Source of the DNA: Octopus vulgaris
Taxonomy: Eukaryota
Assembly (NCBI GenBank): GCA_951406725.2
Contig: OX597822.1
Coordinates: 61,132,001-61,196,000 of the forward strand
Length of the DNA stretch: 64,000 nt
Reading direction: 5' to 3'
Made by a program: the position numbers and the translations under genes. The notes beneath the pieces were generated by a model, which saw nothing but the letters and a program-made list of their open reading frames with translations, did no database searches and was not told the origin of the DNA. Of this stretch, positions 12,687 through 56,634 are shown one piece after another; position 1 is the stretch's first letter; every line of letters begins with the position of its first letter.

Positions 12687-12863
12687 AGACATTCAAAACA
12701 AATCTTCGGCCTCATAAAGGATACATCAAGTCCGTGTGAGCGAATATTGCTGTACGACTACTGCTACTACAACTTCGGCGGTACCTACTCTAACAACAAT
12801 CACTATCTTCTCGATTTCATCTTTGTTTTTCGAATATCTTGAACGAAATCAAAAGCCACTATG
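12687..12863 (+). other. TUBA: gene A distal alternative first exon (5'UTR plus ATG only; ATG 12861-12863)
   Basis: gccactATG|gtaagatt donor; UTR alignable with 19893-20075; TATATAAA at 12663-12670; no other + strand tubulin body lies between it and 24160. Confidence 0.72.
12711..12740 (+). promoter_or_regulatory. conserved 5'UTR stem-loop, copy 1
   Basis: CTCATA-AA-GGAT-ACATCAA-GTCC-G-TGTGAG. Confidence 0.7.
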
Positions 12864-14314
12864 GTAAGATTAATTTCTTTTAACTTTCATCTGTGACGCA
12901 TTATCTAAAGAACGGAAAGTTTTCTTTCCTCTGTCAGGTGGTAAGTTCTGGCGAAAGAATTTGCGTAGTAAACGCAGTTGGTAAAAACCTTCGTCAGTTT
13001 ATTTAAGTATTATTTGAAGATGAATGTGATAGAGAGCGATATGCTGTCCTCCAGTAAATTTTATGAAATTTGTGAGAGAATGGCAAAATTTACATGGCAA
13101 AAGGGATTTAATTACTCTTAACTATGCAGCAAAAAAGAAAAAAAAAAACCCTGGGAGAACGTACTTGCTTTTGGTATGCCAAAACAATCCGTTGATGTGC
13201 GTGATCACCCTACAAGGTTCCACCACTTCAACATTTCGGGAATCCCTTTTACTTATTTTGTACTATAATTATTTATTAAGATTTTGTTGATTTCTCCTAT
13301 TTACTCGATGTAAATACTCCCTCTCTTTTCTGTTTCATTTTCTAATTCGCCTTTGTTCTGCCCTCAACATAAGTACCAGTCAAGCGCGGGGGGTCGATAT
13401 AATCGATTATCCCCCCATAAAATCTTCTAGCCTTTTGCTAAAATTTAAAACCGTTATTGTTATTTAACGAGTGTCCGCTATTTCCGTTTCGAGGTCGAAT
13501 TTATTATTCAGCTAGGTCATAAATATTATGAAAATTGTTCTTTAAAAAATTGACACCAGCTTTAGTTCTTTCTCGGCGCTTAAGTTTTATTTTATTTATT
13601 TTTTTTTTGTGATTATTGTTGTGGTTGCTGGTTCAGGACATAACCATCTCATCAATTTGTTTGTCTAGAACTCCATTATTTCAATGTGTTCTTCCTTTTA
13701 TATTTCAAGACTATCTGGTATGGTTTGGGTTTCTTTTCTTTTCTTTATTTCTAGTAGCTTAACCAAGCAAAGACTCACTCACTGGTTTATATATGTGGCA
13801 GTTTTGTGCTTCAACCACTAGCGCGTTCGAATGGACAAGGGATCTGTGAAATCTACAAATCAAAATTAAATAATTTGTAACAAAAGAAAAAACAAATAAT
13901 AGTGGTGATGAAGACAGTAGTTGTGATTTTAAGGGGTGATTATTTAACTTAGCTCTGGCAGCTCCTGTCACTGCATAGACATTCATGGACATACATTTAT
14001 CTTTGTATCGTGTCCCACCCCCGCACATTCATAATTAGTCAACATAACTTTTTATAACCCTGGGTTCCATAAAATGTGTCAGTAGCTTTTCCTCTGGTCG
14101 GCAAACTTGAATTAAAAGTATTCTTTTTTTTTTTTTTTTCTTAAACGTTTGAGGAGTGTCTTTCAAAAGATGTGCTAGTGCGTGACAGAGAGAGACATAG
14201 GTATGCCAAATATATAATTTAAAATAAGACTTGAGCGTCATTGTACGCCATTATAATTTAATACAATATACTAAACGTCTACTTTTTCACCCTCCAAATT
14301 TGAAGCCTAAAAGA

Positions 14315-15088
14315 TTGAGAACCACTGCATTGGACTGATTTGAACTTTTTTAGCTGCTATTTCGGGCTACTACGTAAAGCTCTCTCATTGGCTCTTATAG
14401 AGTCTTGATAGGTTAAATAGACAAACAAACCTGTTACTCGAACGCTTGAATGCCCACAAACCGTATAAGATTCAACAATATTCAAATAACCCAAGGCGGC
14501 GAGTTGGCGGGCGAAATGCTTAGCAGTATTTCGTTCTGAGTTCAAATTCCGCCGAGGTCGACTTTGCCTTTCATCCTTTCGGGGTCGATTAAATAAGTAC
14601 CAGTTACGCACTGGGGTCGAGCTAATCGATTTAATCCGTTTGTCTGTCCTTGTTTGTCCTCTCTGTGTTTAGCACCTTGTGTGTAGTAAAGAAATTAAGT
14701 ATTTCGTCTGTTTTTACGTTGTGAGTTCAAATTCCGCCGAGGTCGACTTTGCCTTTCATCCTTTCGGGGTCGAGAAATTAATTACCAGTTCCGTACTGGG
14801 GTCGATCTGATCGACTGTCCTCCTTCCCAAAAATTTCGAGCCTTGTGCCTAGAGTTGAAAAGAATATTTAAACAACCCCTTCTTCTGCAAAAATATGTTA
14901 AAATTTAAAATAAGGAGAGATTGCCAAATATTAAATAAAATTTATTGATAAATAAGTAAAAAACGTCTTGCATTCGTCAATTATGCCTGTTGTGATATAA
15001 AATATGTATGAACCAACTCATAACAGATAAGATGAAGAGATCCGTTGCCAGAAGTCGAATCAATTATCGATCGCTATCCTACAGAGAG
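14315..15088 (+). repeat. left arm of local inverted duplication
   Basis: reverse-complement match to 16727-17292, including non-SINE AT-rich sequence. Confidence 0.9.
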
Positions 15089-16726
15089 AGAGAGAGAGAG
15101 CACTAGTCGTTCAGTCTTCATGTTAACATGTTGTTAATACATTATTAATAATATAACGGAGTATTGAACAAAAGTTGAACAAGAAAACATTTACAGCTTT
15201 GCTGATCTGTTATTGTAGAGTTTTTATTTACTACACACACTAACTTTATTTAGCGCCACATACAGAACCGGTTTAAGACCAATTGCTAGGTCTAAGCACA
15301 ATCAAACAATAGCGTATATGTATGTCCTCTACGTCTCGACACCTCCATTGTTAACTGAAACAAAAGATCTAAGTGCTTTGGATGAAATTATAAAAAATTT
15401 ACGTTTCTGTTTGGTCGACCGTCCACCAAGCCAAACCTTACAACTGTATCAAATACAGCCAATTTCATAATTGTGTTCAACAAAGCAATTCATTTACCAA
15501 GCATTGGGTGGGATGAGGGATGCAAACTTCCAACAGTTTCATTCATTAAAACAATATTTTACCGTTCGCACCAGAATAAAATTGCAAAAGCAATTTTCGC
15601 CTCTGCTCTCGATACCCTAAGTACGTCTTTATGTTGATTATTAGTTTAACTGAGTCCGGTCACATGTTGCTATTCTGACACAGATCAGCCATGCTCTAAG
15701 AAGGCCTGTCATAACCATCTTAGCCTTCTCTTTTCAAGACAGTAGAGTGTAATTTGAGAGATTTGTGGATGTTAATTTTAGCAGATGAAGCTACAACGTA
15801 GTCATTCTCAATGACATTGATATATGTACAGGAGAAATTGGCAATATCGATCCTAGTACACAACTGGTAACTATTTTAACGGCTACCGATGTCTTTTGAA
15901 CACAAAATATAAAGAGAGGAAACTAAACTCACAGATTCTGCTACTTCACACGAAATATAAATACCAAATTTATTAAATACAAGCGTAGTACCCGTCGAAA
16001 ATGACGAGGTCTATTTCGTTGCCATTCAGTAATTCTTAATCAATTGCTTCTGTTTCTTGTACTGTGTTGTTTTGCAACACTATTTCCCTGCATGGAATAT
16101 TCAATTCCCATGATAATCTCTGTTTGCTCTGTATGGCCTGGAATAAATTTGTTTATAAGAAATACCTTGTCATCACTTATGCTTCTTCATTGTTCGTGTT
16201 CACTTACATGATTATTTCTTCTCTTCCTCTCCCTTTATATAATTTCTTCTCTTATGCTCTCTCTCAAAATCTCTCGTATACCGACGCATACACTTCAGTA
16301 TTATAAATGCATTTTATCTTTATCATTTACCCATTACAATTGTTTTATCACGTTTCACCTCCAATTTCCCTTCACTCTATTAAAACAGAGCTTTGTCTTC
16401 TTTCAGCTCGCATCTCTTTCGCAAAATTCTCTTATGTATGTATGTATGAACAATTGTCTGAATGCAAGGCAGTCAATGACATTGTTTGGACATCCGATAG
16501 AACGCATTGCAATGTATTGCGTCTCTACTTTTCAGATACTACCAATGTCGATTTAGCCTTTCGTAATTTTAGAAATATATAGTACCTAGCGAATTTTGGA
16601 GAATCTCTCACTCTCTCTTTCTCTCTCTCTTTATAATCTAAATAGGACGTTGCGACGGGTCATAGAATACAATAAAAAAGCACCCAAGTCCTTCCGTAAT
16701 AACTAAGCAAAATTAGAAATTTCCAA

Positions 16727-17292
16727 CTCTCTGTAGGATAGCGATCGATAACTGATTCGACTTCTGGCAACGGATCTCTTCATCTTTTATCTGTTAAAAG
16801 TTGGTTCATATATATTTTATATCACAACAAGGATAATTGACGAATGCAAGACGTTTTTTTTACTTATTTATCAATAAATTTTATTTAATATTTGGCAATC
16901 TTTCCTTATTTTAAATTTTAACATATTTTTGCAGAAGGGGTTGTTTGAATATTCTTTTCTACTCTGGATATAAGGCTCGAAATTTTTGGGGAGGGTGCCA
17001 GTCGATCAGATCAACCCCAGTACGCAACTGGTACTTAATTTCTCAACCCCGAAAGAATGAAAGGCAAAGTCGACTTCGGCGGAAATTGAACTCACAACGT
17101 AAAGACAGACGAAATACTGCTAAGCATTTCGCCCGCCAACTCGCCGCCTTGGGTTGTTTAAATATTGTTGAATCCGATACGGTTGGTGGGCATTCAAGCC
17201 TTCGAGGTTTGGTTGTAAGAGCCAATGAGAGCTTTACGTGGTAGCTCGAAATAGCTAAAAAGTTCAAATCACTCCAACGCAGTGGTTCTCAA
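16727..17292 (-). repeat. right arm of local inverted duplication
   Basis: reverse-complement match to 14315-15088; lacks one ~180-bp SINE unit present in the left arm. Confidence 0.9.
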
Positions 17293-19892
17293 TTTCAGAG
17301 AGAGAGAGAGAGAGAGATCTCATCTACCACTGAAGCTGCAAGATTACACTATCCCACCACAGGCGCCCTCCATAATCTGCTAACAGATGTTACAAAGAGG
17401 CAGATATAGATATCGCATCTGTCTGTGTGTTCTGTTTAGAGATGTATTTGCCAATTCATCCTGTCCTAATTTAAGATGGCAGGGTGCGATTTGAAGAAAA
17501 GTTTGCTATGCTCTACAAGTCGCGTTCACGCAGTGGCTCGAAGTAAACACCGGTGCTGTTGTGTAGCCCCCAACAAACCACCTGTAAAAATAAAATTATG
17601 ATGAAAGGCACTCCAGTCGTGACAATTCCGTGGTTTGTATATTGGGAACTATATTGTTCAATGCAGTCTGGGTGTGATTTGTATAGTTTTGAGAGGCGCT
17701 GTTTTCTGCATATTAAGCGACAACTGCATTATGTGTTGGGTGCTCCAGCATGGACACAGCCTTTGCGCTGAAACATAAAAGAAAACCCTGACATTTCTTA
17801 CGCTGAAAGTGTTAGCCATAACTGCAATACGTCGTGCGGTTTATGTACGTATATAGATTATCGATTTCAGAGTAAAAGAAAGTTGGGTGAGGAACGAAAT
17901 TGTATTAGAAAAGTCAGTAAAAATCTTTTCCCGTTCCATGACAGTAGACCTCATCTGAGATATCACATACTGTGACACCATCTCCATCGACAATTTAGTG
18001 TTAATCACCAGGTTCCGCTGCTTGTCGGGCTGAGAGAAAAAAAACTGTCAAGATATCGGTTGCTTTCCAACAAGTTTATGGTAAGCCTGTGGCAGTTGAG
18101 ACTTGCGGTGTTCTTGGCTCCGGACCATATCCCAACTCATCGGTATCGGGGCAGAGATTACTGTCTGCAAGTGCGAGCCCCATGAATCAGAATGGCAATC
18201 TCCTGGGCGACGCCTTTTCCATTTTGTCTCTTGGTGCCATAAATGTTTATACTTTCTGAGAGACACTTTTATTTTTATTGGAATTAGTTTTTCCTTTATT
18301 TGTATTTAATGCATTTAGTTAGGTATACCTCAGCAAGATATTCGCTTTTTCATGGCATTTTAACAAATTATGAGACCATTTTGCAGAGTTAAATTATCTC
18401 CGTTTAGGAGCATGTTAGACAAGGTCTAAAGGTCTTTGGTTAAATCTCTGGTTTCTGCAAAGTAATGAAGTTTTTTGCTTTGGGATTTACTGATCGAAAT
18501 CTCACTAGTTTCACTTTAGGGAGGATAGACAAGGAAGTTCTTGCGATCACACTGCGCGCACACACATGCATACATGTGATCGTTGTGTGTGCGTGCGCTC
18601 TTTACTCCTGTTCCAGTTATTGGACTGCGGCTATGCTGGAGCCTTATAGATTGAATCTATCCTAGTACTTATTTTACGTTTAGTATTTATTCGATCGGTC
18701 TCTTTTTGCTGGACCTCTAAGTTACGGAACGTAAGGAACTTAATACCAGTTGACAAGTGGTGGAGCAGACCCACACATTCATATGAGCGCGCGCGACGGG
18801 CTTTAAGTAGTTTCCATCAACCAAATACACTGCGTCAGTTAATATATGCATGTGTTCGTGTATATAATAATCTTTAAAGATACTTCTAGTGTTTATCGTT
18901 GTCTGCGTGTTTACGTTCGAATGACAGTATATGTGTGTCTGTTATGGTAAATTACTTATCTAGATTGTGTATTTGTGAATGTACATGCCTTTCATATTTT
19001 ACTCCTCTTTAGTGTTTGTGCAAATGTTTCTTGTTTAATCCTAGGTCAGACCTGATTGAGCAAAGATATTACAGCAATCACTGTCTCATAGTCATACTAC
19101 ATGTAGGCATACCTCAACATAGATCGATAATTGCTTCCAAGAAACAACTTAACACGAAAAGACATTTTCCAAAAAAGTTATGTTTTAATAAATGGTTTCT
19201 ACGTATTTTAACGTGTATTATTTGATATTCCTCCTCGGTAAAGGTATTTAAGTGGGGTTTTTTATTTTCATAATTTTAAATGTTTGGGATCGACGTAGTC
19301 GGATAAAAATCTAATGGAGTCGAGGTTTATTTTTTCCATTGATTTCTTTTCAAAAAGACGTAACTCGAAACTGCGTATGTTATATAGTATGTATAAGACT
19401 ATATTATCAAATGTGGCCTTCTCTAAAACGTAGATACACTGCTATTTCTAGCTAGTAGGACAACCACATAGATGTTCTTATTGACTATATTACATAATTT
19501 TTAGTGTCTACATGTGTGTGTGTGTGTGTGTATATATACACAAATACATGTATGATTGTTTCAATGTCTCCTGTCGTTTGTATGTTTGTGTATGAATATG
19601 ACTATTTCGGATCTGTGTTTGTGAAAAGACGCATTCGTAAACAAAATGAAAGATAGATGTCGCAGAAAAAAAAAAGCGGGTTGTTGTAGTGGTGATGGTG
19701 GTTGTAAGATCCAGCACTGAGTTTCCGAAATGGTGGAAAAGAGGAAGTGGAAAACGACACTTCGTTTTGGATCTAGTAAATAATGATATAATAAATAAAT
19801 ATAATCGATAAATATTGTGTAGGATAGTAGTTATAGGAGGCGCGCTCACACACGCATGCACACATATACACTCAAAATCATGGTACCATCTC

Positions 19893-20075
19893 AGACGTTC
19901 ATAACCAATATTTGGCCTCATTAAGGATACATCGAATCCATGAGCGAACATTGTAGTACTGCTACAACAACCATACCTTCCAGCGACTGCTACAACTGCA
20001 GCATCTACAACAACTAATACCACTACAATCTCATCTTCGTCTTTCAAATTATCTTAAGATCCAAAATCCATTATG
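19893..20075 (+). other. TUBA: gene A proximal first exon (5'UTR plus ATG only; ATG 20073-20075)
   Basis: atccattATG|gtaagatt donor; splicing to 24160 gives MREC; homologous to three other ATG|gtaag exons; start inferred from TCAGAC initiator-like motif. Confidence 0.82.
19917..19944 (+). promoter_or_regulatory. conserved 5'UTR stem-loop, copy 2
   Basis: CTCAT-TAA-GGAT-ACATCGA-ATCC-ATGAG. Confidence 0.7.
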
Positions 20076-21783
20076 GTAAGATTAATTTTAATTATCATCA
20101 GTGATATCATCATTATTATTATAGTGAGTGACCGCTATTTTACGTTTTGAGGTTGAATTTATTATTCAATTAGAAGTAGAATGCTAAAGAAATGTCGGGA
20201 TGGTGAACCGACTTATTTCTTTTTACATTTATAAATTTTGAATTCTTGGTTCTTTTGTGATTATTCTTTTCTTAATTAGCCCTAGGCTAGCCCTGATAGA
20301 TGAGCTCTGTTGATCAGAGGCTTTTAAATCGTGATCATCTCTCTTCTTGCATATCTAGTACTCCACTGTTAAATGTTATATAATTTAGAAGGAAAAATTC
20401 AGTAGGGTGTGATTTAAGTGAAATTTGGCTGTTATTTCTTACAATTCGATCAATCACTTAGGAGCTCTCTCATTTTCTCATTTTTAAATATTTTCAACTG
20501 TTATAAATTCATTTTCATATAAGCAAACAAATGAACAAGAAATCTGTCAATAAAATTATTTATGGCAGTTTGATATAATTATGCTAGTGATTGGTGGTGT
20601 GATTTGATGGCTGTTTTTTTTTTAATGTATTCTGACCATCGTTGTTAACCACTGATGCAGGTCTATCTATACTGTAACCATGACCATCCTGCTTGTATAT
20701 ATACGATTACATTGTCTAATATGTCATCCCCTTTCTTAAGACAAGTAGAGTATGTTTTAAGGGAGATTTGACTGCTATTTCTAGTAGGACAAACTGTTAG
20801 AGAGAGAGAGAGAGCGAGTGACAGAAAATTGTTAATGAAACATAAAGAAACATTGCATAGAACATACAGGTAAATTTACTGTCAATACAAACCTCATTTT
20901 AACATTCATTTTTCTATGCCTGCATGGGTTGGACAAGATTTGTTGAAGCAGATTTTCTACAGCCAGATGCTCTTTCTTCATCTCTTTCCCAATGGCCAGA
21001 CATTTTTCACAGAAGATGGGGAATGATTGATGCTCATTTACAATCATCATGTGAAATCAAACTAAGAGTACACAAACGCATACACACTGCAGGCTTCTTT
21101 CAGTTTCCATCTCCCAAATTCACTCACAAGACTTTGATTGGCCCAAGACTGTACTAGAAGACAATTGCTCCTATACCTGCATCATACTACTAAACATTTC
21201 CAATAAAACAATGCTTCTCAAAATGGGCAGTACTGCCCCATGGGGTAGGAAGTGGGGATAGATGCATATATAGTTTTCTTAGTTTGACCCCCCTATTTAA
21301 ATATTGACTTGAGAAATATTTAAATATATATATATATGCAGACATGGCTGTGTGATAAGAAGCTTATTTCTCAACTACATGGCTCTGGGTTCAGTCCCAC
21401 TGCATGGTACCTTGGACAAGTGCCTTCCACTATAGCCTCAGGCTGATCAAAGCCTTGTGAGTGGATTTGATAGATGGAAACTGAAAGAAGCCCATCGTGT
21501 GTTTGTGTTTGTTGCCCCAACACCACTTGACAACCAGTATTGGTGTGTTTACATCCCCCGTAACTTAGCAGTTTGGCAAGTGACCAATAGAATAAGTACC
21601 AGGCTTTTTTAAAAAAATAAGTACTGGGGTTGATTCATTTGGCTAAAAAATTCTTCAGAGCAGCCCCAGCATGGCCAGTCTAGTGACTGAAACAAATAAA
21701 AGATAGTATTGATAAACATTTGTTAGCCATAAAACATCAACAATAGTAATAGATTTTGAAATGTGAATAAACAAAACAATGTA

Positions 21784-22646
21784 TGAGAGGGTGTCAAAAA
21801 GTTCCCAGACTAGTTTTGTAGTGTACCAATAGATGGCAGCACATGGTTGTGTGCACCGTGAGAGCTAGCAGTGACCTTCATGAAACAGTGTGCTAAGTAA
21901 CATTGCTGGGTTTACTTTGCAAGTTGTGAAATTTGTGTTTTTGTGATCATGTGTATGCTGTAGTCTGCGATTTTGTCATAGATGGGAACAAAGAGAGCCA
22001 ACATGAAATTTTGCTTTAAACTTGATAAGTTTGCTATTGAGACACTAAGCGTGTTTCAGCAAGCTTATGGTGATGAGGCAATGAGTCGTGTGCAATGGTT
22101 CAAGTGGTATGGGTGCTTCAAAAGCAGGAGAACATCCTTGAAAGACAATCTGGGAGATCTGCCATAAGCATCACTCCCAGAAATGTGGTAGTGTGCATCA
22201 AGAATTCATCCCCCAGGGTCAGATCATCAATCGAGAGTTTTGAAGCATTTGAGGGAAGACTTTCGGCAAAAGTGACTGGATCTGTGGAGTGTGAAGAATT
22301 GGCTTCCTCACTGAGCTCTCCTACCTCTTGAGTTTCTCATCAAAAACATATTGCTTCCGTACCTGCTCTATTCACCAGATTTAGCACCTTTGATCTCTTC
22401 CCCAAGATGAAAATGCAACTCAAAAGTTACTGTTTTAATACCATTGTCAAGGTCCAGAGCAAATTGCAGAAGGCTTTCGACTCGCTTATGGAAAACGACT
22501 TCCAGGCCAGATTCCAAAAGTAACAGGAACACTTGGACTGGTGTATTGTGGTGCAAGGTGACCATTTCAAAGGAGTTGATGCTAAAATTTAGATGTTATT
22601 TTTTATTAAACATAACTAGTCCTGGAACATTTTGATGCCACCTATG
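21784..22646 (+). mobile_element. internally deleted mariner (Tc1/mariner) transposon
   Basis: imperfect TIRs with TA flanks; RANMKFCFKL...QQAYGDEAMSR.Q.FKW HTH-like N-terminus and YSPDLAP motif. Confidence 0.85.
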
Positions 22647-24093
22647 TATATAAATTATTAACAAAAGTATAATTTAAAAGACAGGGATACCTGGCTGGCT
22701 GACTGGTCACATACTTCTGTCATTTAGGCACCTCTGATCCAGTCATTTCTCCACTTCTTGTCTTAGTACATCCAACTCTCCCTTTCTTCAGTCATGTTTT
22801 CCTTGCAGGTGTTGACTTACAACATTTGAAACAGAACATTAACAACATCAATATCACCACTCTCAGAAGGCCTGCATTTATTGCTTGCTACTTTTTACCA
22901 TCACTCATTTATTACTACCCTTCACTCTCTTCCATTAATTCTTCCATACCACACTTACACTCTTCTAACTCTTGTTTTCCTCCTCAACCTGTTATACTTT
23001 TTCTGTTCTCTTTTGTTTATTTCCTTGCTCACATTTGCCCTGAACAAATAGGAACAACAAAGAGATCTCTTTTTGCAGCCTTGTATAGGACACGTCAACT
23101 TCTTTAGTGTTGGTGCCATGATAAAATGAACCCAGTATGTTGTTAAGTGGTTGGTGAATGAAATTAAAGAGATTTTTAATCTTGTTGAGGATGTTGCAAA
23201 TTTTATAATACTTGTACGATGTTAAAATCATCTACACTTTGTATAGTTGTAAATATTTGCAAGGACACTTAGCCATAGGAAGCATGGAATAATGAACTAA
23301 ATGCAAGTTTTAGTCTTCTAGCATGTCTAGGAAGGCACTAACTCCAAATATGGATTAACTCAGAATGTGATAACCTGTCCAACTTGTGCCAATATGGCAA
23401 GCAGGTCTAAATTGAGGATTAATGGATATCTATCTTGCTAGTTTAGTGGCTTACCAGCCATTATGATAACAGAATCCATAAAGAAAAGGAACATGTCTAA
23501 TGGTTACAAGAGTTACATGACTTAAGTAATTTGCTTTGTAATCATGTGGTGCAAGGTTCAGTCCCATTTACCTGGTATCTTGGACAAGTTCTTTGACTTT
23601 CAGGTCAACCCAAGATTTGTGAGTAAAGTTGGGTAAGTAGAAACTGTAGAAGCCTATTGGATTGTACATTGTGATACAAAATAAACCAGCTTTATCACCC
23701 TGTGTCAAGCTAGATCTGATTGACAGTTATGTTCAGAGAGCATGTATTTATGGAATACTTGATCACTTACACAGTAATTCTATAAGTAGGTAGTTCAATG
23801 ATTAAAGAATGCATTGATGGAATCAACTAAATTCCATTGATGTTTTTATATCAACTTAATGATTCATTCATCTCTAGGGTCCAATAAAGTTAAGCCTAAT
23901 AAAAACTGTCTCCAGGGTTATCTCTCATACTTGCCATTGATTATTGAAATTACGTTATTGATCAGAAGTCTTTTCCTAACTACAGAATTATTTCAGATGA
24001 CATTTTTAATGTTCATTATATATATATATATATATAAATGTGAATTTACTACATACATATACTCGTGTAGAGATGATGTTTATGTATGCTTAG

Positions 24094-25612
<1,519 letters not shown>

Positions 25613-25645
25613 ATCACTCAGTGATATTGTGACCACTCTCCAACA

Positions 25646-25651
25646 AATAAA
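25646..25651 (+). terminator. polyadenylation signal of gene A
   Basis: AATAAA about 34 nt after the stop, followed by a U-rich tract. Confidence 0.7.
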
Positions 25652-28600: not shown

Positions 28601-29059
28601 TCATCTTTGACGTATGTGCCGAGGAAATATTAATGAAACAAACTTACCTGATTTGTAAATGATACTGAAACCACCTTTGGGAGGATTTGAGATTCATTTC
28701 TGATTCGAAAAGTGTCACAGTAAAGAGAGGATCTAGCCATTTCTTCGATGTATCGTTGAACTGCAAATTGTTCGTTCTGATTGATGTTGTGTCATAGGAA
28801 CACCAAATCGCCGAGGACATGCTCTGCTCCCAACATTTATCAAATTAAGCAACTGTTCTTCCGACATGTTTTCTTCTCGTACTCGATTCCTTTCTCGACT
28901 TTTTTTTTGCCGGTATTCTACCTGCTGTTCATCGTTCATGTTTCGCAGAACCTCTCTCTCTTTCTCTCTCTCTCTCTGTGTTGTCGGGGGATTATCTTGG
29001 TTTCGTTTTTGCCTGTATCATTGCATTTCCTTCTTGTAAGTTTTGTTCCGAGGTGAAGT

Positions 29060-36461: not shown

Positions 36462-36497
36462 TTCAAGCAATCGTTCTTGCAAATGTCTTTAAATCAT

Positions 36498-37624
36498 TTA
36501 ATATTCATCGACGTCTTCATCTTCAGCATCAAATGTGTCAACTCCAACCTCTTCATAGTCTTTCTCCAGAGCTGCCAAATCCTCACGAGCTTCAGAGAAC
36601 TCACCTTCTTCCATACCTTCTCCTACATACCAGTGAACGAAAGCACGCTTGGCATACATCAGGTCAAACTTGTGGTCCAGGCGAGCCCAGGCCTCAGCAA
36701 TGGCTGTGGTGTTGCTCAGCATGCACACAGCACGTTGAACCTTAGCAAGATCACCTCCTGGAACAACAGTTGGTGGTTGGTAATTGATACCAACCTTGAA
36801 GCCAGTTGGACACCAGTCAACAAACTGGATTGACCTCTTTGTCTTGATAATTGCAATGGCAGCATTGACATCTTTGGGAACCACGTCACCACGGTACAAC
36901 AGGCAGCAAGCCATGTATTTACCATGGCGAGGGTCACATTTCACCATCTGGTTTGCTGGTTCAAAGCATGCGTTTGTAATCTCAGCTACATTCAACTGCT
37001 CATGATAGGCTTTCTCAGCAGAAATGATTGGTGCATAAGTAGCCAATGGGAAATGGATCCTAGGATAAGGTACCAAGTTGGTCTGGAACTCAGTCAGATC
37101 AACATTAAGAGCACCATCAAATCTCAAAGAGGCAGTGATTGAACTGACAACCTGAGCAATCAAACGATTCAGGTTAGTATAGCTGGGTCTTTCAATATCA
37201 AGATTTCTTCGGCAGATATCATAGATGGCCTCATTATCCACCATGAAAGCACAGTCAGAGTGCTCCAGGGTGGTGTGGGTGGTCAGGATAGAATTGTATG
37301 GTTCTACAACAGCAGTTGCTATTTGAGGAGCAGGATAGATGGAGAATTCTAGTTTAGACTTCTTTCCATAGTCAACACTGAGACGTTCCATAAGAAGAGA
37401 TGTGAATCCAGAACCAGTACCACCACCGAAACTATGGAAGATCAAGAAACCTTGAAGGCCAGTACATTGGTCAGACAATTTACGAATTCTGTCAAGAACC
37501 AAATCAATTTGTTCTTTTCCAACAGTATAATGACCTCTGGCGTAGTTATTGGCTGCATCTTCCTTTCCTGTGATGAGTTGTTCAGGATGGAAAAGTTGTC
37601 TGTACTGACCGGTACGAATCTCAT
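36498..37624 (-). CDS. TUBA: alpha-tubulin gene B, terminal coding exon 3
   Basis: ctttcag acceptor; same length as gene A exon 3 (1127 nt); ends ...[18 protein letters not shown]. Confidence 0.98.
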
Positions 37625-37741
37625 CTGAAAGTAAAAAAAAAAAAAAAAACCTCATTTGAATCATTTGTTCAAAAAGTTGAATGAAATTAAAATTTCCAAA
37701 ATTTAACAATAAGATACAGAAATACATATGAAAATACTCAC

Positions 37742-37964
37742 CAACAACAGTGGGTTCCAAGTCTACAAAAACAGCCCTGGGAACATGTTTTCCAGACCCT
37801 GTTTCACTGAAGAAAGTGTTGAAAGAGTCATCTCCACCGCCAACTGTTTTGTCAGATGGCATCTGACCACTTGGCTGGATTCCATGTTCCAGACAATAAA
37901 GTTCCCAGCAGGCATTACCAATCTGGACTCCAGCCTGTCCAACGTGGATACTGATACATTCCCT
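37742..37964 (-). CDS. TUBA: alpha-tubulin gene B, coding exon 2
   Basis: minus strand ttttcag|AGG GAA TGT ATC = [12 protein letters not shown]...; 223 nt; ends G|gtgagt; K40 motif present. Confidence 0.97.
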
Positions 37965-39046: not shown

Positions 39047-39104
<58 letters not shown>

Positions 39105-39900: not shown

Positions 39901-39939
<39 letters not shown>

Positions 39940-40559
39940 ATTTTGTTCAAGAGTTCGATTTCCCGCAGCGCGTTGTGTCCTTGACACTTTATTTAACGGT
40001 GCTCCAGTCCATTTAGCTGGTAAAACGAATTTCCCTGAGACGTATGAGGAGTACGCGTGTCTGTGGAGTTCTCAGCCATTTGCACGCTAATCTCACGAGT
40101 AAAGCTGTTCCGTTGATCAGATCAACTGGAACCCTCGTTGTCGTAAGCAACGAAGTGCCAGTTTATATATATATATATATATATATAAACGATTAAGAGA
40201 GCCACGTTCGAAATTAGTCTCCAAAGACTTCATACGTCGACATACCAACACACACTTGATAACTATGGTACTCATATCGTAATTTAGCCGTTTGTTGTTA
40301 TTTCCAGTCCGTTTCATGCCTACGACGGTCACCACTGACCTACATATTCTATTAGCAATCCTCAAGAACACAAACAGAAAGACTACTTTTATGCTTGGAG
40401 CATTAATGCGTATAAACATGAGTCAAGCCACAGGAAGTCTGAACAAATGTGTAGCAGTAACAATTATTGTTTAGACAAAATGCTCCAACAATCACTACTA
40501 CCACCACCCTTTTACACTTCGCCAACATCACCTCCTTTTCACAGAGAGTCAAGTGGAAA

Positions 40560-40700
40560 AAAAAATGAAATAACTTCCTCTCGGTCTGGCCTTGTCTGAC
40601 TCAGACTGAGTCACGTCATCCATCAATTCTTAGAATTCATTCGGCTCAGGCAATTGACCCACCCAACACCAACAGGAAATACATTTTTGAGAAAGAGTGA
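40560..40700. promoter_or_regulatory. candidate intronic enhancer (two AP-1, CRE-like, STAT and ETS motifs)
   Basis: TGACTCA 40597, TGAGTCA 40607, TCACGTCA 40611, TTCTTAGAA 40627, ACAGGAAAT 40672 within about 110 nt. Confidence 0.4.
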
Positions 40701-43366: not shown

Positions 43367-43412
<46 letters not shown>

Positions 43413-43532
43413 CACACACACAAATATATCATAAGACAGGCAACCGGTCATATCTGAGGATTGTATGTTATATGAAGTTTAGATTCTAAACGGAAACAAA
43501 CGGCAAGATATTATCTATCTATCTATACATAT

Positions 43533-43563
<31 letters not shown>

Positions 43564-46500: not shown

Positions 46501-47002
46501 AAGGACTAGTAAAGTTAATATACCAATTGGGATTTTCGACACAATACAGACGAAATTTTAAACTTTATCACAAATTCACAATTTTGCAAACTGGAAGGGA
46601 GGATATGATCGCTTAAATCGATACCAATACGTTACCTGGCACTTATTTTATCAATTTCAGTGATACACACAAAAAAAAAAAAAAAATCTGGGGGAACACA
46701 CAACGTAATTAAATATTCGGAGCTCAATATATTTCGGTAGTACACAATCGTAATATTTGGGGTGAGGGAGGGTGAAACAAATCGGTAACCTTTGGGATAA
46801 GTGTCTGCATTAAAGCGATTACTGTCAATAAATCGTATTGACTATAACCATTGCAGAGACGAGAAGTAAAGATTAGCAGCATCGTTTGAGATTTAAGTTC
46901 AACATTTCAAAAGTGTCAAAACTAATGAAGAAATTAAAAGTAGTAATTGTTGCATAATAAATTGTCATACATTGTTACTTAATTGTTACATAATTAACTT
47001 AC

Positions 47003-47150
47003 CATAATGGATCTGATGTGTTTTCAGTTGAACAAAAAGTAAAAGAAATTTGAAGAGATTTTTTTCTTTTTTTGTGTGGGAAAATAGCACGGCAGGCGGC
47101 GCTCACACAGATATGAGGTATCTTTCGTGAGGGCGAAGCTGCTTGTAACT
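47003..47150 (-). other. TUBA: gene B proximal first exon (5'UTR plus ATG only; ATG 47005-47003)
   Basis: minus strand gatccattATG|gtaagtt; TATAAAA 28 nt upstream of a CAGTT initiator-like motif; carries the shared UTR hairpin. Confidence 0.85.
47102..47131 (-). promoter_or_regulatory. conserved 5'UTR stem-loop, copy 3
   Basis: minus strand CTCACG-AA-AGATA-CCTCA-TATCT-G-TGTGAG. Confidence 0.7.
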
Positions 47151-47171
47151 GCTGGTGCCGAAAACACTCCG

Positions 47172-47178
47172 TTTTATA
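47172..47178 (-). promoter_or_regulatory. TATA box of gene B proximal promoter
   Basis: minus strand cTATAAAA, 28 nt upstream of the A of GCAGTT. Confidence 0.7.
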
Positions 47179-47893
47179 GTGGAGGAGTTTTCCCCTCTTC
47201 TCTCCTACATATCTCCCCTTCTCTTGTACCGCCTTATGAAATTCTCTCTCTCCCATTTCCTCTGATTTATTTGTAGGCAAATCTTGCTTAAAACTCAGCC
47301 AATATTATATTTCACCCATACTTTCTCATTCGTCCACGATATGTTCGAAACCAACCCCCTCCCAACCAAGCCGACCGCTCCGCCAGCATCTCCTAATTAT
47401 TACCTCACCCACCTCCATTACCTACGATTCTTCATAGGCTTACCTTCTTCCGCTTCAATATTTTTTACACTTATCTCTTACTCTCGCTTGCTTTTCAAGT
47501 ACTTGTCCCTCCGCCACCACCACTACCACCAGCCACTTCTTACCCGCATCTTATCTTGATTAACATGAATATCTAAGTTGAAAAAATAAGATAAAATGAA
47601 TGTAAAAAAAGCTGTTGCTGTTTAGACTATCATTCTAACCACGACCATCCTATCTGAGTTCCCATCCTTCGAAAGTAGGAGTAATTTTAAAAGAAATGCT
47701 GCTATTTTTCACATGAAGTGTCATTGAAGCACCACTGAAGACAGCCTGCTCAGCATGTATCTTAGAGCCTGTTTAGCTTGAGCTCAATATAGAGACACTC
47801 ATCAATTTCACAGTGCTGCTGCGACCAACAACGATTATCTACACTTTAGCTGTAACTATTTATAGCAAAGTGGGTTAGGTTGTTTAAGATTCA

Positions 47894-47965
47894 TTTGACG
47901 AAGTCATTTATAAACGAACACAAATTTAGTTTGACGAAGTTATTTAAAAACGAACACAAATTTAG
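47894..47965. repeat. 36-bp tandem duplication upstream of gene B proximal promoter
   Basis: tttgacgaagt(c/t)attta(t/a)aaacgaacacaaatttag twice. Confidence 0.85.
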
Positions 47966-49899
47966 TTCCTGGATAACTATAATTGATTTGATCATGTTCA
48001 ATAAAGTTGAAAATAGAGAGAAATAGAGAGAAGAGGCAAAGGGAGAATTCCCGCGAATGTTATCGACATTCTATCTAATTCGAGATTTTGAATCGGATCA
48101 TAACGAGGAAATATAAACATTCCAGAATTCATATTATTTTTACAGCTGGATACTCTCCTGCGCAGTAGTTCTACCTACTAGAAATAACAGCTAAACTTCC
48201 CCCAAATCACACCCAGTGGATTATGCGCTGGATTACAGGACAAATAAAGGGCTGGGTGGTTTAAGGTTGACTGGAACGTTGTTGGTTAGGGGTAAACAGC
48301 AACAGCCGCCAAAATAACTGACTTTTTATGGCATTGCTTATCTTTTCTTTAATTTCACCTACTTAAATCTTCTGACATGTTTTTCTTCTCTGTAAGGAAA
48401 ACTAAGTTATTTTAAAATAATATAAATAATATATAAATATATGCATATATACATACATATATGTACATACCTACATATATATGTATATATACATATGCAT
48501 ATATGGGTACAGGACATAAAAAAAAACGTTGAACACAATGAGAAATAAAAACATAGAAACGAACTTTTTTTCGAACAACGAGACCCCCCCCCCCCCCGAG
48601 AAATGAGACATACAACATAAAGAATATTCCCCTTCTTCAGTTGTCCCTGTTTCATCTTCTCCACGTTTAGAAAGCAAGGACAAGACGCAACTTAATTGAA
48701 ACAGTCCTTCCCGCAAAGCAAACTAAATAAAATTTGGGGTTTTTTTGCGGAGGGTGAAAGTGGTAACAAGAACAGGACAGTGAGAACAAAACAGTAAAAA
48801 CAAACGGCGAGGGCTGTTAAGTCGAGACGATAACCCTGGTTTTATTCTGCAAACATTCACATTTTGTCTCATGGTCAGTAATTTGTCGATTACATCGAGC
48901 CTAGTACTTTATTCTATCAACCTCGAAAGGAACAAAGGCAAAGTTGACCGAGGCAGAACATAAACACAGAACATAAAAGAGCCAGAAAAATACTGCAAAG
49001 CATTTTGTACCATGCGTTCTTTATTCTGCAAGTTTGCCCGCCTGGCATCATAATATATGAAAGTGAATTTAAGGTGGCGAGCTGGCAAAACCGTTAGCAC
49101 GCCAAGTAAAATGCTTAGCGGCATTCCATCCGTCTTCAAGTTCTGGGTTCAAAAGTCGCCGGGGTCGACTTTACCTTTCATCCTTTAAAGGTCGATAAAA
49201 TAAGTACCAGTTTAACAATGGGATCAATGTAATCGACTTGGTCCCCTGAAATTTTTGGCCAAGTGCCAAAATTTGAAACCAATATACAAAAATGAAGTTG
49301 TAGATCATAGTTTTGCACCAAGGTGGTAACGGAAATTTTGCCTAGGACTTTTTCTGAATCTTATCAAAAATATTAAAAACTCCAAGCACTGCAGTAGACA
49401 TTGGAAAAGGTTATTGATGAGAAAAATAGTTCATTTCAAGCATTGATGCAAATTAAGTAAAGTATTCTGAAAAATCAGTTTTCTCAGAAAATATTTCTTA
49501 AAAAATGTAAGAGGAAAAGTTTAATTTTAGGTTACACGTTTGTTTGCACATTCATATAATCAATTTGAATGGGCTTTAGATTTGCAACAATTCATGGTGA
49601 GTCGACATTCCCAGACCAACTAGAAATTATCAGCAACTTTAAACCCATTTCCATACACATCCATGAGGTGGGTGTCATCATCGTTGTGGCCAAACTTGTA
49701 ACATTGAGGGTGACTACTTACCAAATCTTCTAGATCAAAACATGTAACTACAACAATAGGCTCTCTCATACATCTTGGATCTTGATCTCCCCAACAAAAA
49801 ATGATAAGTTAACGATGAAATTGGTCATGTGTGACGATGGAGTTATATTGTATTTTTAACAAAACTGAAGATTTTCACCAGAAATAAAATGTGTCCTTT

Positions 49900-50540
49900 T
49901 CGTGCGGTGATGATTAACACGATCTTCGAGAATTTTCTCATTATATTGGGCTACAGATGGATGAAATTGTTGTTTTGCTGAAAGTCCTAATCCGACAACC
50001 CTATGGGCGGTGTGATTCATTGGGCTATTGTTTTGTAGCTCTAGCGGCATCCTTTTGTCGAATCTTTTCTTTATTTGGCTTTCAAATGTGGTGCAAATGT
50101 CGAACAACTGTTGAATGGTTAAGGTTTAGTTGTTCTGCAATTTTCCGAGTCGTTTTGTGCGGATCTACTTCAATAATGGACCTCAATTGGTCGTTGTGAA
50201 TGGCAGAAAGTCGCTAGCAACCCTCCTCCTCTTCAAAGCTCTCATCTCCTCTACGAAATCTTCGGAATCAATGTTGAGCTGGACGTTTGTCGTCGGTCCC
50301 CTGGCCAAATATTCGGTTGATATTGTCAATAGTTTCTGCCATTTTGAAGCCTATTTTGATCTCGTATAAAAATATAGCTCGAATTTGCTTTTTATTCAGC
50401 TTTAATCTGACATAAAACAATAGATAAATTTGCATTTCGAAATGGTGTATAACATACACAAAAATTTATTCTAAAATAAGCATTCAAGTTTAAAATTTAT
50501 TAAAAAAAAAGAAAACCACAGAAATATTTTCTGCATCAAT
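49900..50540 (-). mobile_element. mariner transposase remnant (Hsmar1-like N-terminus)
   Basis: KKQIRAIFLYEIKIG.KMAET..NIN..FG motif on minus strand. Confidence 0.75.
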
Positions 50541-50905
50541 TTAATATCGTTCCTTCTTCTTCACCCTGTAGAAAATCATACTATGCACATCCACGTGTTT
50601 AAGTCAACCATGGCCTAGTATCAGGCCTATCAGCGATGAAGATTCCAGTTCCCACCCAGATGGTGTAATCTTTGAAGACTACATAGTTTAATGTAGCCTT
50701 GCTTTCAATACTGTAGGATGTGATTTGAGAGAAAGATATGGCTACTCATTCTATCAGTCAAGTGATCGCGTTCAGGAATCGCTTTTTTTAATTTAACAGC
50801 AGGCATTGCTGCTGTAGGGGGAGTGGAATACGATTTTTAGAAATCTGTATAGGATGCAGATTTTTTTTTTCTAGATTTTAAGATAAGTACACAGTTTTAT
50901 TGGTC

Positions 50906-50963
<58 letters not shown>

Positions 50964-51604
50964 AATTGAAGGAATGCAGTATTTAGACTAAATTATTAAA
51001 TTATAGTTTTGTCACACCAAGTACGGGCTAAAAAGTCAGCTCCTTGTTTTCAGCCACACTTGTAGCCATCTTCAGAGTATTGCAGTTAAGGAAAAAGAAG
51101 TTCGTTGCATGAATGAGCAACCATCGATTAAGAGTTGTTTTGCTATATTTTATATGCTTGTTTTATATGCCTGGCTCATAAGGGCCGGTTTCTCGGTTTC
51201 ATTGGCGTATAGGTTCCCCACCTGGACGGAACGCCGATCTGTCGCAGGTGAGCTCCTTGATGCAGGAGGAAAGAGTGTGAGAAAGTTGTGGCGAAAGAGT
51301 CAGCAGAAGTCTGCCATTACCCTCTGCCGGAGCCGTGTGGAGCTTAGGTGTTTCGCGCATAAACACACGTCGCCCGGTCTGAGATTCGAACCCGCGATTC
51401 CTCGACCGCGAGTCCGCTTCTCTAACCACTAAGCCATGTTCCTCCAATTATATGATATCATTTTTCTTTGTAGCCTTTGACTGAAAATGGATTCTCTTCG
51501 ACAAACTACGACATTCCGAGCAGTAAGATGAACTGAGGCGAAACACCAAAACACTTTTCCAAACCGAAAGTACGTCAAATGGATGTTACGGCCATTGCTT
51601 GGAG

Positions 51605-52400
51605 CCAATCGATTAGATCGACCCCAGTACGCAACTGGTACTTAAATTATCGACTCCCGGTGGAATTTGAGCTCAGAACGTAAAGACAGGCGAAAGACCT
51701 ATTTCTTTACTACCCACAAGGGGCTAAACACAGAGGAGACGAACAAGGACAAACAAACAGATTAAGTCGATTATATCGACCCCAGTGCGTAACTGGTACT
51801 CATTTAATCGACCCCGAAAGGATGAAAGGCAAAGTCGACCTCGGTGGAATTTGAACTCAGAACGTAGCGGCGGACGAAAGACCGTTAAGCATTTCACTCG
51901 GCGTACTAACGTTTCTGCCAGCTCGCCGCCTTAAACTCATTGCAAAATTACAAATACTGCATGGCAGCGAGCTGGCAGAACTGTTAGCACGCGGCACACC
52001 GGGCAGAATGCTTAGCCGCATTTCGTCCGTCTACGTTCTGGGATCAAATTTGGCCGAGGTCGACTTAGCCTTTCACATTTTTCGAGGTCGATGAAATAAG
52101 TACCAAATGAGCACTGGGGTCAATGTAATCGATTAATCCTGTTCCCTGAAATTGCTGGCCTTGTGCCAGAATTTGAAACCAATATTGTGAAGCAGCAAGC
52201 TGGCAGAATCGTTAGCACGGAAAAGGCTTAGTCGCATTTCGTCCGTCTTTAGTTCTGGGATCAAATTTTGCCGAGGTCGACTTTGCCTCTCATCCTTCTG
52301 GAGTCGATAAAGTAAGTACCAGTTGAATACTGTTGTCGATGTAATCGACTTAGCCCTTACACCAAAACTGCTGGACCTGTGCCAAAATTTGAAACCAATA
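51605..52400. mobile_element. cluster of Nin/Deu-type SINEs in both orientations
   Basis: dimeric copy on - (51605-51932), two copies on + (51960-52185, 52190-52400). Confidence 0.8.
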
Positions 52401-52829
52401 ATTTCCTTCTTTGCAGGCTTTTATATCCTTGGGATACACGTTAGATATATAATTTAACGATGCGGTGGTTAAATCAATGTGTTCGTATGACGTACTTCGC
52501 ATGACTACCAAAACACTCAATTTCTTTTATTGGCCACACAGGGCCCAACACAGGAGAGACGTCACAAGGACAGACAAGCGAACACACACACACTGTGATT
52601 ATAATGAAATGACAAATGTAATGAAATGAAGGAAAATTTTTGAATTCTTACAGAAAGCGAGATAATAATTAAAAATTCCATATTTTATACATTTTTTACA
52701 TCACCGGGTTAATTCACCCACCGCTATTATCCGACGTATCCCCCTTGGATGGCTGCAATTAGTCATTTCCATTCATTCGCAACTTTCTTACTACGTTCGT
52801 TCATCTACCAATCGTACTACGCGACAGAA

Positions 52830-54190
52830 ATTTTACCCACCCGCTCTAAGGTGTAGCACATGAGGTGGAGATTGTCGTATATCGCCCTGCCAGGGATGGC
52901 CCATGTTAGCGCTTCCCCAACAAGACTGCCTACGACCCGCGCTTGCCTCTTTGCCAGCACATTGGCCAAAATCTTTACCTATGTGTTTAACAGTTATGGG
53001 CCTAAAGTTACTAATAATGTCCCTCTTGCTTGGATTCTTTCTGATCAGCGTCACCCCCACCCCCCATTCCGGCTCGCAGCCTTTGGAATTCTCCCATTCT
53101 GCTGCCAGTTGGTATAGACGCTGGCCAGTAGGTGCCCGAACAAATCTGGCATACTTTTGAAAAACTCTTAGGGTAGACCATCAAGTCCCGGCGACAGTCC
53201 CTCTATGACCTTAGCCGTGATCGATCCTTCACAGCACTCAACCTCTCGTACCGAGAGACGCGGGCCACCAGCCAGGAAGTCCCGAAGGGGCTCACCATGG
53301 TCCAGCGCCTCACTCCTCCCTTACTCGGCAAAGTGCTTGTAAAGGATCTTACACATCTCATCTTGTCCTTCGATCAAACGCTCCTGTCCATCGACCAAAG
53401 ACCCAAGTGTGGCATCATTGCAACAGTAATTTCCTCGCAGCCCAATGTACGCACTTTAGTCCGAACTCTACATCCCTCGTGTTTGGCTTTGAGGTGTCGG
53501 TCCAAGGCCGATCTTGCTGTCAAAACTTGGGATGCAGAGCCCATCCTTAATGCCTCTTCTAAATCCTTGACTAGATTCCCTTCTATTCTAGCCTTATCTA
53601 AACTTAGCTACTGGCTAAATCTAATCGACTCAAGTCGAATGGCTCGTTTGAGGGTAAACCACCACCTGTTATTTAACACGTTGCCGGTTAATGCTCTCAT
53701 GACTAACTCCTTAATCTGACTACGGTATGCCTCACAAGACAAAATAGTCATGTTTAGCTTCTAGTAGCCAGATCCCTGTCTATGTACTCTATCTATGTTC
53801 ATCCTACACGTCACTGGCCTGTGATCCGTGTAGGAGACCAGAACAAGCTGTGGACAACTAAAACTAGACTTATCTCGAGTACGAATTATTATTCTATCTA
53901 TATAAGACCTGAACGACTTGTCGCCATTACTCCAGAACGACCAGCCCATCTTCTGGGTCTACAAAGATTGTACTTGCCTGCAGAGCCAAGCTTTTACGGA
54001 GCAAAACTACTACCCTCCTCGACCTCCGGTCTAGTTAGGAGACATGATTTTCTCATAGCCATTCAGGAGAGCCGAGAAGGTTTGTAGTCTGTCCAGCTTG
54101 ATCTCTGTAGCAACAATCACATCTATGCTATGAGACCTGAGGTCGTCGCAAAAACAAGCTTGCTTCTACTTCAGGAACTCAGGTACAGTC
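52830..54190 (-). mobile_element. L1/Tx1-like LINE ORF2 fragment (APE endonuclease and start of RT), degenerate
   Basis: minus strand YIDRII, YTDHRPV, GSGY*KLN, SPGLDGLP, TLIRK...NFRPIT remnants with stops and frameshifts. Confidence 0.8.
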
Positions 54191-56498
54191 ATTTATACAC
54201 GAAACGGGGATCAGGTACTTACCTGTTTTTAACAAGCGAAGGAGGGATTGTTCTTAATGTTATAGAACTACTCTCCTCCTTGTTTTTCTCCCTTTCCTCG
54301 TCGGTTTCCGGCGGTGGGTCTATCAGTTTGAGCATCTCACTTATTTTGTGGATGCCCTCCGGTCTCCTGTCTGGAATCTTACTTCGAGGACAACATGCCG
54401 TAAAAAGTTTGATACCATGAACGAGTTATTTCGAAGTTTTCCTTGTGTATGCTGGTTGCCGCAGTAAAATTTTTAACACCGTGATTAGTTTGGTCACTGA
54501 ATTGGTTTCTTTTAGAGCCATTCGCTCTTTTAGTATTTCCACATATAGAAGAGACATTATTTTTCCAGAGAAAAACACAGATATATATTTTTGAAAAAAT
54601 TCTCACAAAGGGAACTAATTCTTTTAATAAATTCTCACGAAAGTGAATTCAAAAAGTTCATTTTCCTCCCCCGTAGGGTAAAGGACACAGTTCACAAAAA
54701 AGATTTTGAACAAGTTGCAACAGCAGAAAGCTATGTTCAAGTCTTTCCCCCGTAGGGGAAAGCACGAAATTTCAACAACGGCCTGCCAAGCAAGTAACAG
54801 TTTTCAACAGACAATAAACTACAATAATTTCAACGCCAGGGGTGTCAATGACTCGCGTCACAACACAGGCCTAACCGAATCCTAAAAAAAAAATGACGTG
54901 GCTGCGTGGTAAGAAGCTTGCTTCCCAACCACTTGCTTCTGGGTTCAGTTTCACTGTGTGGCATCTGGGCAAGTGTCTACTACCATAGCCTCGGGCTGAC
55001 CAAAGCCTGGTGAGTGGATTTGGTTGACGGAAACTGAAAGAATCTCGTCATAGATGTGTGTGTGTGCGTGTGTATTTGTGTCTGTGCTTGTCCCCCCACC
55101 ATCGCTTGACAGCCGATGCTGGTATGTTTACTTCCTCGTAACTTAGCGGTTCGGCAAAAGAGAACCATATAATTAGTCCTAGGCTAACAACGAATAAGTC
55201 CTGGGGTCAATTTGTTCGACTAAGACCCCCTTAAGGTAGTACTCCAGCATGGCCACAGTCATTTAAATGACTGAAAGAAGTAAAAGAATAAGAGAATAAA
55301 AAATAATGGTCATGGTGGATTAATTAATTATGTAACAGTTTGAAGATTTGTTTCCAGGCCAAGCATCGCGACCAATTCTCTGTTGTCTCTAATAAGTCAT
55401 TCAAAAACAACCAAAATCGACTTAATTCTCCGAGATAGATAACACAAATACACGTCATGCGCTGGGATCAGTTGGACACTATGTCGACAATTCCTCTTTA
55501 GGTGGCTGGTTGTAATATGAAGAAGATTTGGCTACTATTTCGTTGAAGAAACATTTTCCAATCAATCCATGCTGACACACTTCACTTATTAAAAAGAAAA
55601 ATCTTCCTAACTATCGGCTGTTAGCAGTATATTAGCAAATCTTGATTTTCGTATCTCGTAAGCGACACATTTTCATATCGACATTTTCTTTTTGCAGCAG
55701 CGGTAGACAAAGCAGAATATAAATTAAATTGTTTGGTTCTAAATATTCAACATTGATCGAAAAATATGTTCCAGCTGTGACCATAATGTTTGTTTATTTG
55801 AGTTAAATAAGTGTAGTTAGAGCTAAATTAACCATTGTGTTTGTTCATTTTCATGAAAAACATTTGGGTGCGATTTGATAATTATTTGTAGCAGGTTAAA
55901 CGACCGCGAAAACAAAAAGTACAACCGGTGAGATAATACTAATATACACAAAAACACCTCAAAAGTAAATAGACAACATTTTTGAAAGATTTATTTATTT
56001 CTGGAAACAACAAGTTTTAAATACTAGAATATAGTAAACACGAATTGGATTGGATTGCCTATTTTCAGTCCACTGCAGGACGAAGGACTCAGCATGTTCC
56101 CTCCACCAACCACGGTTCGATGTAAAAGCCGTGAATTTGAGCTTGAGATTATACTTGTTTGATGAACCTACTTTGCTACACTGGCTCAACATGGCTTGGC
56201 AGAAGGATTACATCGAGCCCAATGTTCAACTGGTACTTATTTTATCGAGTTTGGTAGGATGAAAGCAAAGTCGGCCTCGGCGAAATTTGAAGTGAGAACG
56301 TGGGGACGAAATAAATAACGGCTTAAGCACTTCGCCCGTGCTAACGATTCTGCCAGCTCACCGCCTTAGTAGACGTATCTTGTGCAAAATGCAGTAACAA
56401 GGTGGTAGGACCACTTAGTGTCCGCGCAGATAAACCAGTATAATGAGAGGTGTGTGTTTATTTTTGATATGTCTGTGTATAATAAATATCGAACTTAC

Positions 56499-56634
56499 CA
56501 TGTTGATATACTTTGTTTAGACAGTCGAATGAAGTAACAGCGGTCAGTGCTTAAACAGAGGTATTTACAGTTCAGTGGGTGCTCACACGGATTTGATGAA
56601 TCCTACGTGAGGGCAGAGATTGATTTGAAACACT
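56499..56634 (-). other. TUBA: gene B distal alternative first exon (5'UTR plus ATG only; ATG 56501-56499)
   Basis: minus strand tcaacATG|gtaagtt; TCAGTG initiator-like motif; carries the shared UTR hairpin at 56611-56582. Confidence 0.72.
56582..56611 (-). promoter_or_regulatory. conserved 5'UTR stem-loop, copy 4
   Basis: minus strand CTCACG-TA-GGATT-CATCA-AATCC-G-TGTGAG. Confidence 0.7.

Follow-up and report, generated by a model that had tools for sequence, protein, structure and literature searches.

Short hairpins that messenger RNAs carry within their 5′ untranslated region (UTR) are among the closest described counterparts to the element reported here, a predicted stem-loop of 28-30 nt that occurs four times in a 64,000-nt stretch of Octopus vulgaris DNA (contig OX597822.1, positions 61,132,001 to 61,196,000; hereafter the window), upstream of two alpha-tubulin genes. 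Like the iron-responsive element (IRE), it comprises about 30 nt with a lower stem, an asymmetric interruption, a short upper stem and a conserved apical loop, lies in the 5′ UTR near the predicted cap, and is common to a set of mRNAs. However, the octopus loop has 7 nt (W-C-H-U-Y-R-H) in place of the 6-nt CAGWGH or the 22 SIREs motifs listed for it (PMC12230718), the 5′ strand lacks the bulged C that an IRE carries five pairs beneath its loop, the upper stem is of 4 bp, and the element is found at alpha-tubulin genes only. The loops of the ten copies present in the genome matched none of these 22 hexaloop motifs, in agreement with the original prediction, which had set the element apart from IREs; UAGGAU and CCGUGU do occur in octopus copies but fall in the stem arms, where, compared by eye, they are unable to close an IRE stem. 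It had also been stated that no described RNA family was recognizable, and Rfam gave the same answer: a scan of the window had no match at the gathering score, and 47 weak matches in 8 loci, none of them to an IRE family, were microsatellite-driven or far below threshold.

A second parallel is provided by the collagen 5′ stem-loop/LARP6 system, likewise a gene-family-specific 5′ UTR hairpin with two stems around a central bulge (a likeness of architecture only), whose mRNAs encode subunits of a polymer needing coordinated supply. The collagen element differs in being 48 nt long, 75-85 nt from the cap, described for vertebrates and inclusive of the start codon (PMC4813270), whereas the shorter octopus hairpin would lie near the cap and 74-128 nt upstream of the AUG. 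No description of the octopus element was found in open-access literature text, subscription papers and supplements, the latter a place where genome-wide RNA-structure screens may list it, being beyond the scope of that search; in the accessible part of PMC4613772 tubulin goes unmentioned. As far as the open-access text searched extends, the element appears to be new, resembling the IRE and the collagen stem-loop in its presumed working and failing their defining features.

Tubulin supply is itself subject to described control: in tubulin autoregulation the nascent peptide MREC/MREI is the recognition feature, and the octopus genes also begin MREC (exon 2 reading RECVS... in gene A and RECIS... 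in gene B, after a one-codon exon). This TTC5 route shares with the control proposed here its post-transcriptional character, but it works through a ribosome-bound protein and mRNA decay, not UTR structure (PMC9930134). Closer in behavior is the self-repression of alpha-tubulin in Chinese hamster ovary (CHO) cells, which is alpha-specific, translational and without mRNA loss, as such a hairpin could yield; that system is mammalian, and the abstract of the report names no cis element (PMC2133965). How animals balance the production of alpha- against that of beta-tubulin is incompletely accounted for, TTC5 destroying mRNA and the alpha-specific translational repression having no cis element named in that abstract. 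An element of 30 nt that is restricted to the leaders of alpha-tubulin genes offers a direct handle for probing, mutation and use as pull-down bait; even as a DNA element, it would constitute an undescribed family-wide control site. Moreover, light-dependent changes of alpha-tubulin protein in the octopus retina are reported to be unexplained by the 3′ UTR (PMC2493028), which makes an element in the 5′ UTR worth considering in that tissue as well.

The window carries two alpha-tubulin coding bodies placed tail to tail, gene A on the plus strand (24160-25612) and gene B on the minus strand (37964-36498), each with two candidate first exons (A1/A2 and B1/B2). All four hairpin sequences of the original prediction were recovered at their coordinates and strands (Table 1), 80-128 nt upstream of ATG/GTAAG, the alpha-tubulin first exon with its single codon. 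Their description as four alpha-tubulin first exons stood as regards this context; the coding bodies are two, not four, and splicing was seen for A1 only, among the joints listed for gene A. The joint connecting exon A1 to exon 2 (12862/3 to 24159/60, GT..AG, 11.3-kb intron) was present in contigs of 4/4 sequencing runs presumed to be RNA (recorded as 'RNA?' only), and hairpin A1 lies inside contigs carrying it. In run X3, which bears a second species label, three bases and two indels differ around A1 and none inside, too few to count. No A2 joint appeared among those listed, which is no evidence of A2 silence; to judge by its sequence, exon A2 is possibly weak or in decay. The TATA box present in A1 is missing in A2, and the shortened 3′ arm of A2 creates an upstream AUG whose 25-codon frame (19940-20017, plus strand) ends before the tubulin AUG. 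The sequence ATGGTAAG also occurs at 18078 and 38827, where the motif is absent, and was taken there as a chance occurrence.

Genome-wide, the element is a conserved feature specific to alpha-tubulin first exons. A scan of upstream DNA revealed six further copies, one per first exon, in genes C, D, F, G, H and I, which brings the total to ten copies, each in a first exon, across eight alpha-tubulin genes; C and D belong with A and B, F and G lie on contig C6, and H and I form part of a second C9 cluster. A tight pattern matched the four window places only in 2.8 Gb, and a loose one matched ten, all of them alpha-tubulin first exons, against about 1.4 expected by chance, with no match to reversed controls in either case; the loose pattern was derived from the ten copies themselves, and its informative part is the absence of further matches. 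When one mismatch was allowed, the 30-nt pattern found a single extra place, a decayed orphan on C10 with an upper stem broken by C-C and A-C. A dispersed repeat or transposon fragment was thereby ruled out, the ten exact matches being all at alpha-tubulin exons and the orphan standing alone at one mismatch, and the tie to tubulin exons anticipated from the window was borne out in 10/10 matches. A covariance model applied to 458 kb, 225 kb and 73 kb of DNA picked up the orphan and the ten copies on which it had been trained. Every other match had E 0.3 or worse, and there was nothing at beta-tubulin starts nor in a moth leader considered below; the beta-tubulin starts examined gave no motif match either. 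The orphan (L175:1501-1530; G000:C10:59894789) is closest to copy D, with homology that extends no further than about 9 nt on the 5′ side and 4 nt on the 3′ side of the hairpin, and sits in microsatellite DNA, the 30 kb around it being without a tubulin gene.

Of the 34 matches given by a protein search, 23 were alpha-type (E < 1e-28); eight of these 23 genes carry the element, and eight of ten do so within the three tandem clusters. These comprise 5, 3 and 2 genes (C9:61.09-61.24 Mb, C9:42.17-42.23 Mb and C6:70.60-70.63 Mb, respectively). At C11:23.2-26.7 Mb, eight divergent, mutually near-identical alpha-tubulin genes (71-74% in exon 2) are found, with the motif absent.

The element is conserved beyond neutral expectation. 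Its identity reaches 74% between the three clusters (28 pairs) and 79% within them, while the 30 nt on either side stand at 29-30%, and the conserved island stops at the hairpin boundary. The UTR downstream, which had been called mostly unalignable, proved so, with an identity across copies of 0.52 vs 0.50 when shuffled, although A1/A2 (69%) and B2/C (74%) do align. A functionless remnant of an ancestral first exon, kept similar by recent duplication or gene conversion, would fit the closeness of coding regions within a cluster (fourfold-site distance 0.09-0.27), and the decayed forms in genes E and J and in the orphan show that the element can decay. Yet between clusters the fourfold-site distance rises to 0.57-1.12, with 40-58% of such sites differing, while the identity of the element between clusters on two chromosomes nearly equals that within clusters and its flanks are at background. 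Because the element stays so similar despite this distance and its flanks do not, such a remnant is very improbable. In the protein tree, Argonauta and Enteroctopus proteins grouped with genes A-D (95/92), most other forks being weak, which suggests that the clusters, and hence the element, are older than the split of these octopods; alpha-tubulin proteins of Argonauta, Littorina, Solemya and Plakobranchus were found by protein search.

The consensus of the ten copies reads CUCAY, 2-3 nt, N-G-R-U, the 7-nt loop, R-U-Y-Y, 0-2 nt and RUGAG, with 13/30 columns invariant, among them loop positions C2 and U4. The hairpin of two stems, internal loop and apical loop that had been drawn for the window copies agreed with the predicted fold in all four: a lower stem, a 5′ internal loop of 2-3 nt (its final base A in 9/10 copies), an upper stem of 4 bp and the apical loop. 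Predicted stabilities ranged from -4 to -11 kcal/mol overall and from -5.7 to -10.9 kcal/mol in the window, with z of -2.1 to -3.9 on tightly cut, favorably chosen windows and only -0.8 to -2.6 with 25-nt flanks. RNAalifold returned the same nine pairs as the hand alignment (-7.07 kcal/mol, covariation share -0.37). A reading as miRNA or ADAR substrate was dropped, the stem being too short. In copy I, an AUG is immediately followed by UAG within the hairpin (L058:4222-4227), forming a start-stop element.

In the hand alignment, 87/90 stem cells pair, and paired columns are 84% identical vs 62% for unpaired ones. Most stem variation is G-U wobble. Eight one-sided stem transitions were counted, in four columns. 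The product on the mRNA strand is G-U every time and never A-C, a substitution pattern that favors an RNA over a DNA palindrome (p 0.004 if cells are independent, 0.06 with one event per column, 0.017 under a 60:40 strand mutation bias). Three two-sided changes also keep pairing, G-C to A-U in two copies and C-G to U-A in A2. The competing idea places the function in DNA: the motif would be a downstream promoter element that drives alpha-tubulin transcription, its interrupted palindrome (CTCAY...RTGAG, enclosing GAT...ATC) serving as the binding site of a dimeric factor or a TFIID-like complex. A double-stranded palindrome predicts no excess of G-T over A-C, in conflict with the 8:0 count, of which transcription-linked mutation bias could explain part; in addition, the half-sites are spaced by 18, 19 or 20 nt, initiator-like sites lie 10-28 nt away, and a combined specificity of 30 nt is long for one factor. 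On the other hand, the outer half-sites are invariant, without covariation, the motif lies 45-50 nt from the TATA-like box in 5/7 boxed copies and is also present in every TATA-less copy, and RGWYV, a consensus for downstream promoter elements, fits the 5′ arm of some copies. On balance, a site acting in DNA is unlikely.

The promoter context bears on the position of the hairpin in the transcript. Since TATA-like boxes occur 39-50 nt upstream in 7/10 copies, the usual 30-nt TATA rule would place the hairpin about 10-20 nt from the predicted cap (10-25 nt in the overall estimate). The original prediction had placed the element 20-25 nt after an initiator in every copy, a spacing that relied on the initiators chosen and was not upheld: an initiator-like A was found in five of the ten copies, 10-28 nt upstream.

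An RNA hairpin could also act elsewhere than in translation initiation, as nascent RNA in the promoter-proximal pausing zone that recruits factors for elongation, capping or splicing in a TAR-like manner, or as a signal for stability or axonal localization. HIV-1 TAR sits at the 5′ end of its Pol II transcript and is built of a stem, a 5′-side bulge, a 4-bp upper stem and a loop, and the octopus element, at a predicted position of about +10 to +55, recalls it in its 5′-side bulge, 4-bp stem and 6-7-nt loop; TAR differs in sequence and in being viral and single-locus, and the octopus element had no Rfam match. The evidence for RNA structure fits such a role equally, and an intron of 0.5-19 kb follows the one-codon donor that closes the exon. 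However, the hairpin keeps no fixed distance from the splice donor (74-128 nt), and most of the cap-proximal hairpins of similar size known from cells act in translation. A role of this kind is improbable.

The element is real and probably an RNA, for which a function can be proposed. Our preferred reading, to which we give about an even chance, is a protein-bound leader hairpin, described nowhere in the texts searched, that controls the initiation of alpha-tubulin translation. A stem of -4 to -11 kcal/mol is too weak to halt scanning unaided, and a protein partner is proposed because the hairpin is weak and loop bases C2 and U4 never vary; gating of translation was chosen because of this weak stem, the fixed loop bases and a position like that of IRE-type repressors. 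Alpha-tubulin first exons would fold near the predicted cap into a stem, an internal loop, a 4-bp stem and a 7-nt loop, likely to dock a putative protein by which ribosome loading would be gated for the whole set of alpha-tubulin mRNAs. The signal, in the most speculative step, might be free tubulin or the alpha/beta balance.

Several observations weigh against this translational hairpin. The best covarying pair (G-C to A-U) is broken in 3/10 copies (C, F and G), and covariation was matched or beaten by 70 and 62 of 500 shuffles in tests whose automatic alignments place A2 out of register, while the four invariant lower-stem pairs are uninformative on structure and fit a DNA site equally. Therefore, the three pair-keeping changes remain from the compensatory evolution originally claimed, a term overstated in that formal covariation does not exceed shuffles; likewise, the claim of a cis-regulatory RNA element keeps its alpha-tubulin specificity and sense-strand pairing pattern but not significant covariation. 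Folding of full UTRs gave the helix a probability of 0.1-0.2 in A2 and H and the upper stem one of at most 0.2 in F and G; in 4/10 copies the better fold is that of the antisense strand. Contigs continue upstream from hairpin A1 for 110 nt or more, beyond the TATA-like box, and do not place the cap. Finally, 15/23 alpha-type genes were without a copy by the genome-wide pattern, the first exon having been located for few of these, and genes E and J retain degenerate remnants only: in J, a degenerate hairpin in the first exon (L061:3223-3256), and for E, a candidate first exon at a distance of 34 kb that keeps the 3′ half alone (L046 near 9945, minus strand).

Outside octopus, 40 loci in prokaryote reference assemblies (L233-L272) encode eukaryotic alpha-tubulin, several being spliced insect cDNA, that is, contamination. 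Three contaminant contigs carry one moth-type cDNA, its protein identical to Diatraea and Papilio records, with a leader hairpin that lies some 14 nt into the contig (z -3.57, 0/200 shuffles). This hairpin has the CAUUAC loop of copy F and upper-stem pairs A-U, G-C, C-G and U-A, but differs in its lower stem, in a 1x2 internal loop and in one extra loop base. A descriptor relaxed post hoc, after the moth hairpin had been seen, was matched by 6/20,000 shuffles, and 200 kb of octopus DNA from elsewhere matched it five times; among three animal-type cDNA leaders, it fitted the moth alone, not the beetle leader (82 nt, possibly incomplete) nor that of L269. The moth hairpin is a lead, not proof of homology with the octopus element. 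It invites the distinctly doubtful idea of an old protostome alpha-tubulin operator, in which free alpha-tubulin or its sensor would bind the CAUYA-type cap-side loop and stop alpha-tubulin translation, matching alpha to beta, with the moth leader (upper-stem frame unchanged except for a swapped third pair) as the insect form; if true, the translational feedback described in 1996 would gain a cis element. Viral contigs and plasmids searched gave no alpha-tubulin, and a metagenome pattern scan yielded 97 loci, none with tubulin by tblastn, which were judged chance matches.

Table 1. Alpha-tubulin features of the window, in window coordinates
Feature	Position	Strand	Basis
TATA-like box, 48 nt before hairpin A1	12663..12670	+	sequence and distance; role inferred
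Hairpin copy A1, in first exon A1	12711..12740	+	sequence, fold, spliced contigs
Start codon ending exon A1, then GTAAG donor	12861..12863	+	splice joint in 4/4 runs
Hairpin copy A2 (2 nt shorter, contains upstream AUG), candidate alternative first exon A2	19917..19944	+	sequence
Candidate start codon of exon A2, then GTAAG	20073..20075	+	sequence
Alpha-tubulin gene A exon 2 (RECVS...)	24160..24382	+	protein search, splice joint
Alpha-tubulin gene A exon 3 to stop	24486..25612	+	
Alpha-tubulin gene B exon 3 to stop	36498..37624	-	
Alpha-tubulin gene B exon 2 (RECIS...)	37742..37964	-	
Candidate start codon of exon B2, then GTAAG	47003..47005	-	sequence
Hairpin copy B2, 47 nt downstream of TATAAAA box	47102..47131	-	sequence, fold
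Candidate start codon of exon B1, then GTAAG	56499..56501	-	sequence
Hairpin copy B1, 23 nt downstream of TCAGT initiator-like site	56582..56611	-	sequence, fold

Intron 1 of gene A contains high-copy repeats at 14530-14870, 17020-17070 and 21310-21700, which dominate the mapped contigs. Short reading frames at 21982-22164, 60682-60915 and 52800-54400 appear to resemble fragments of mariner transposase and LINE reverse transcriptase.

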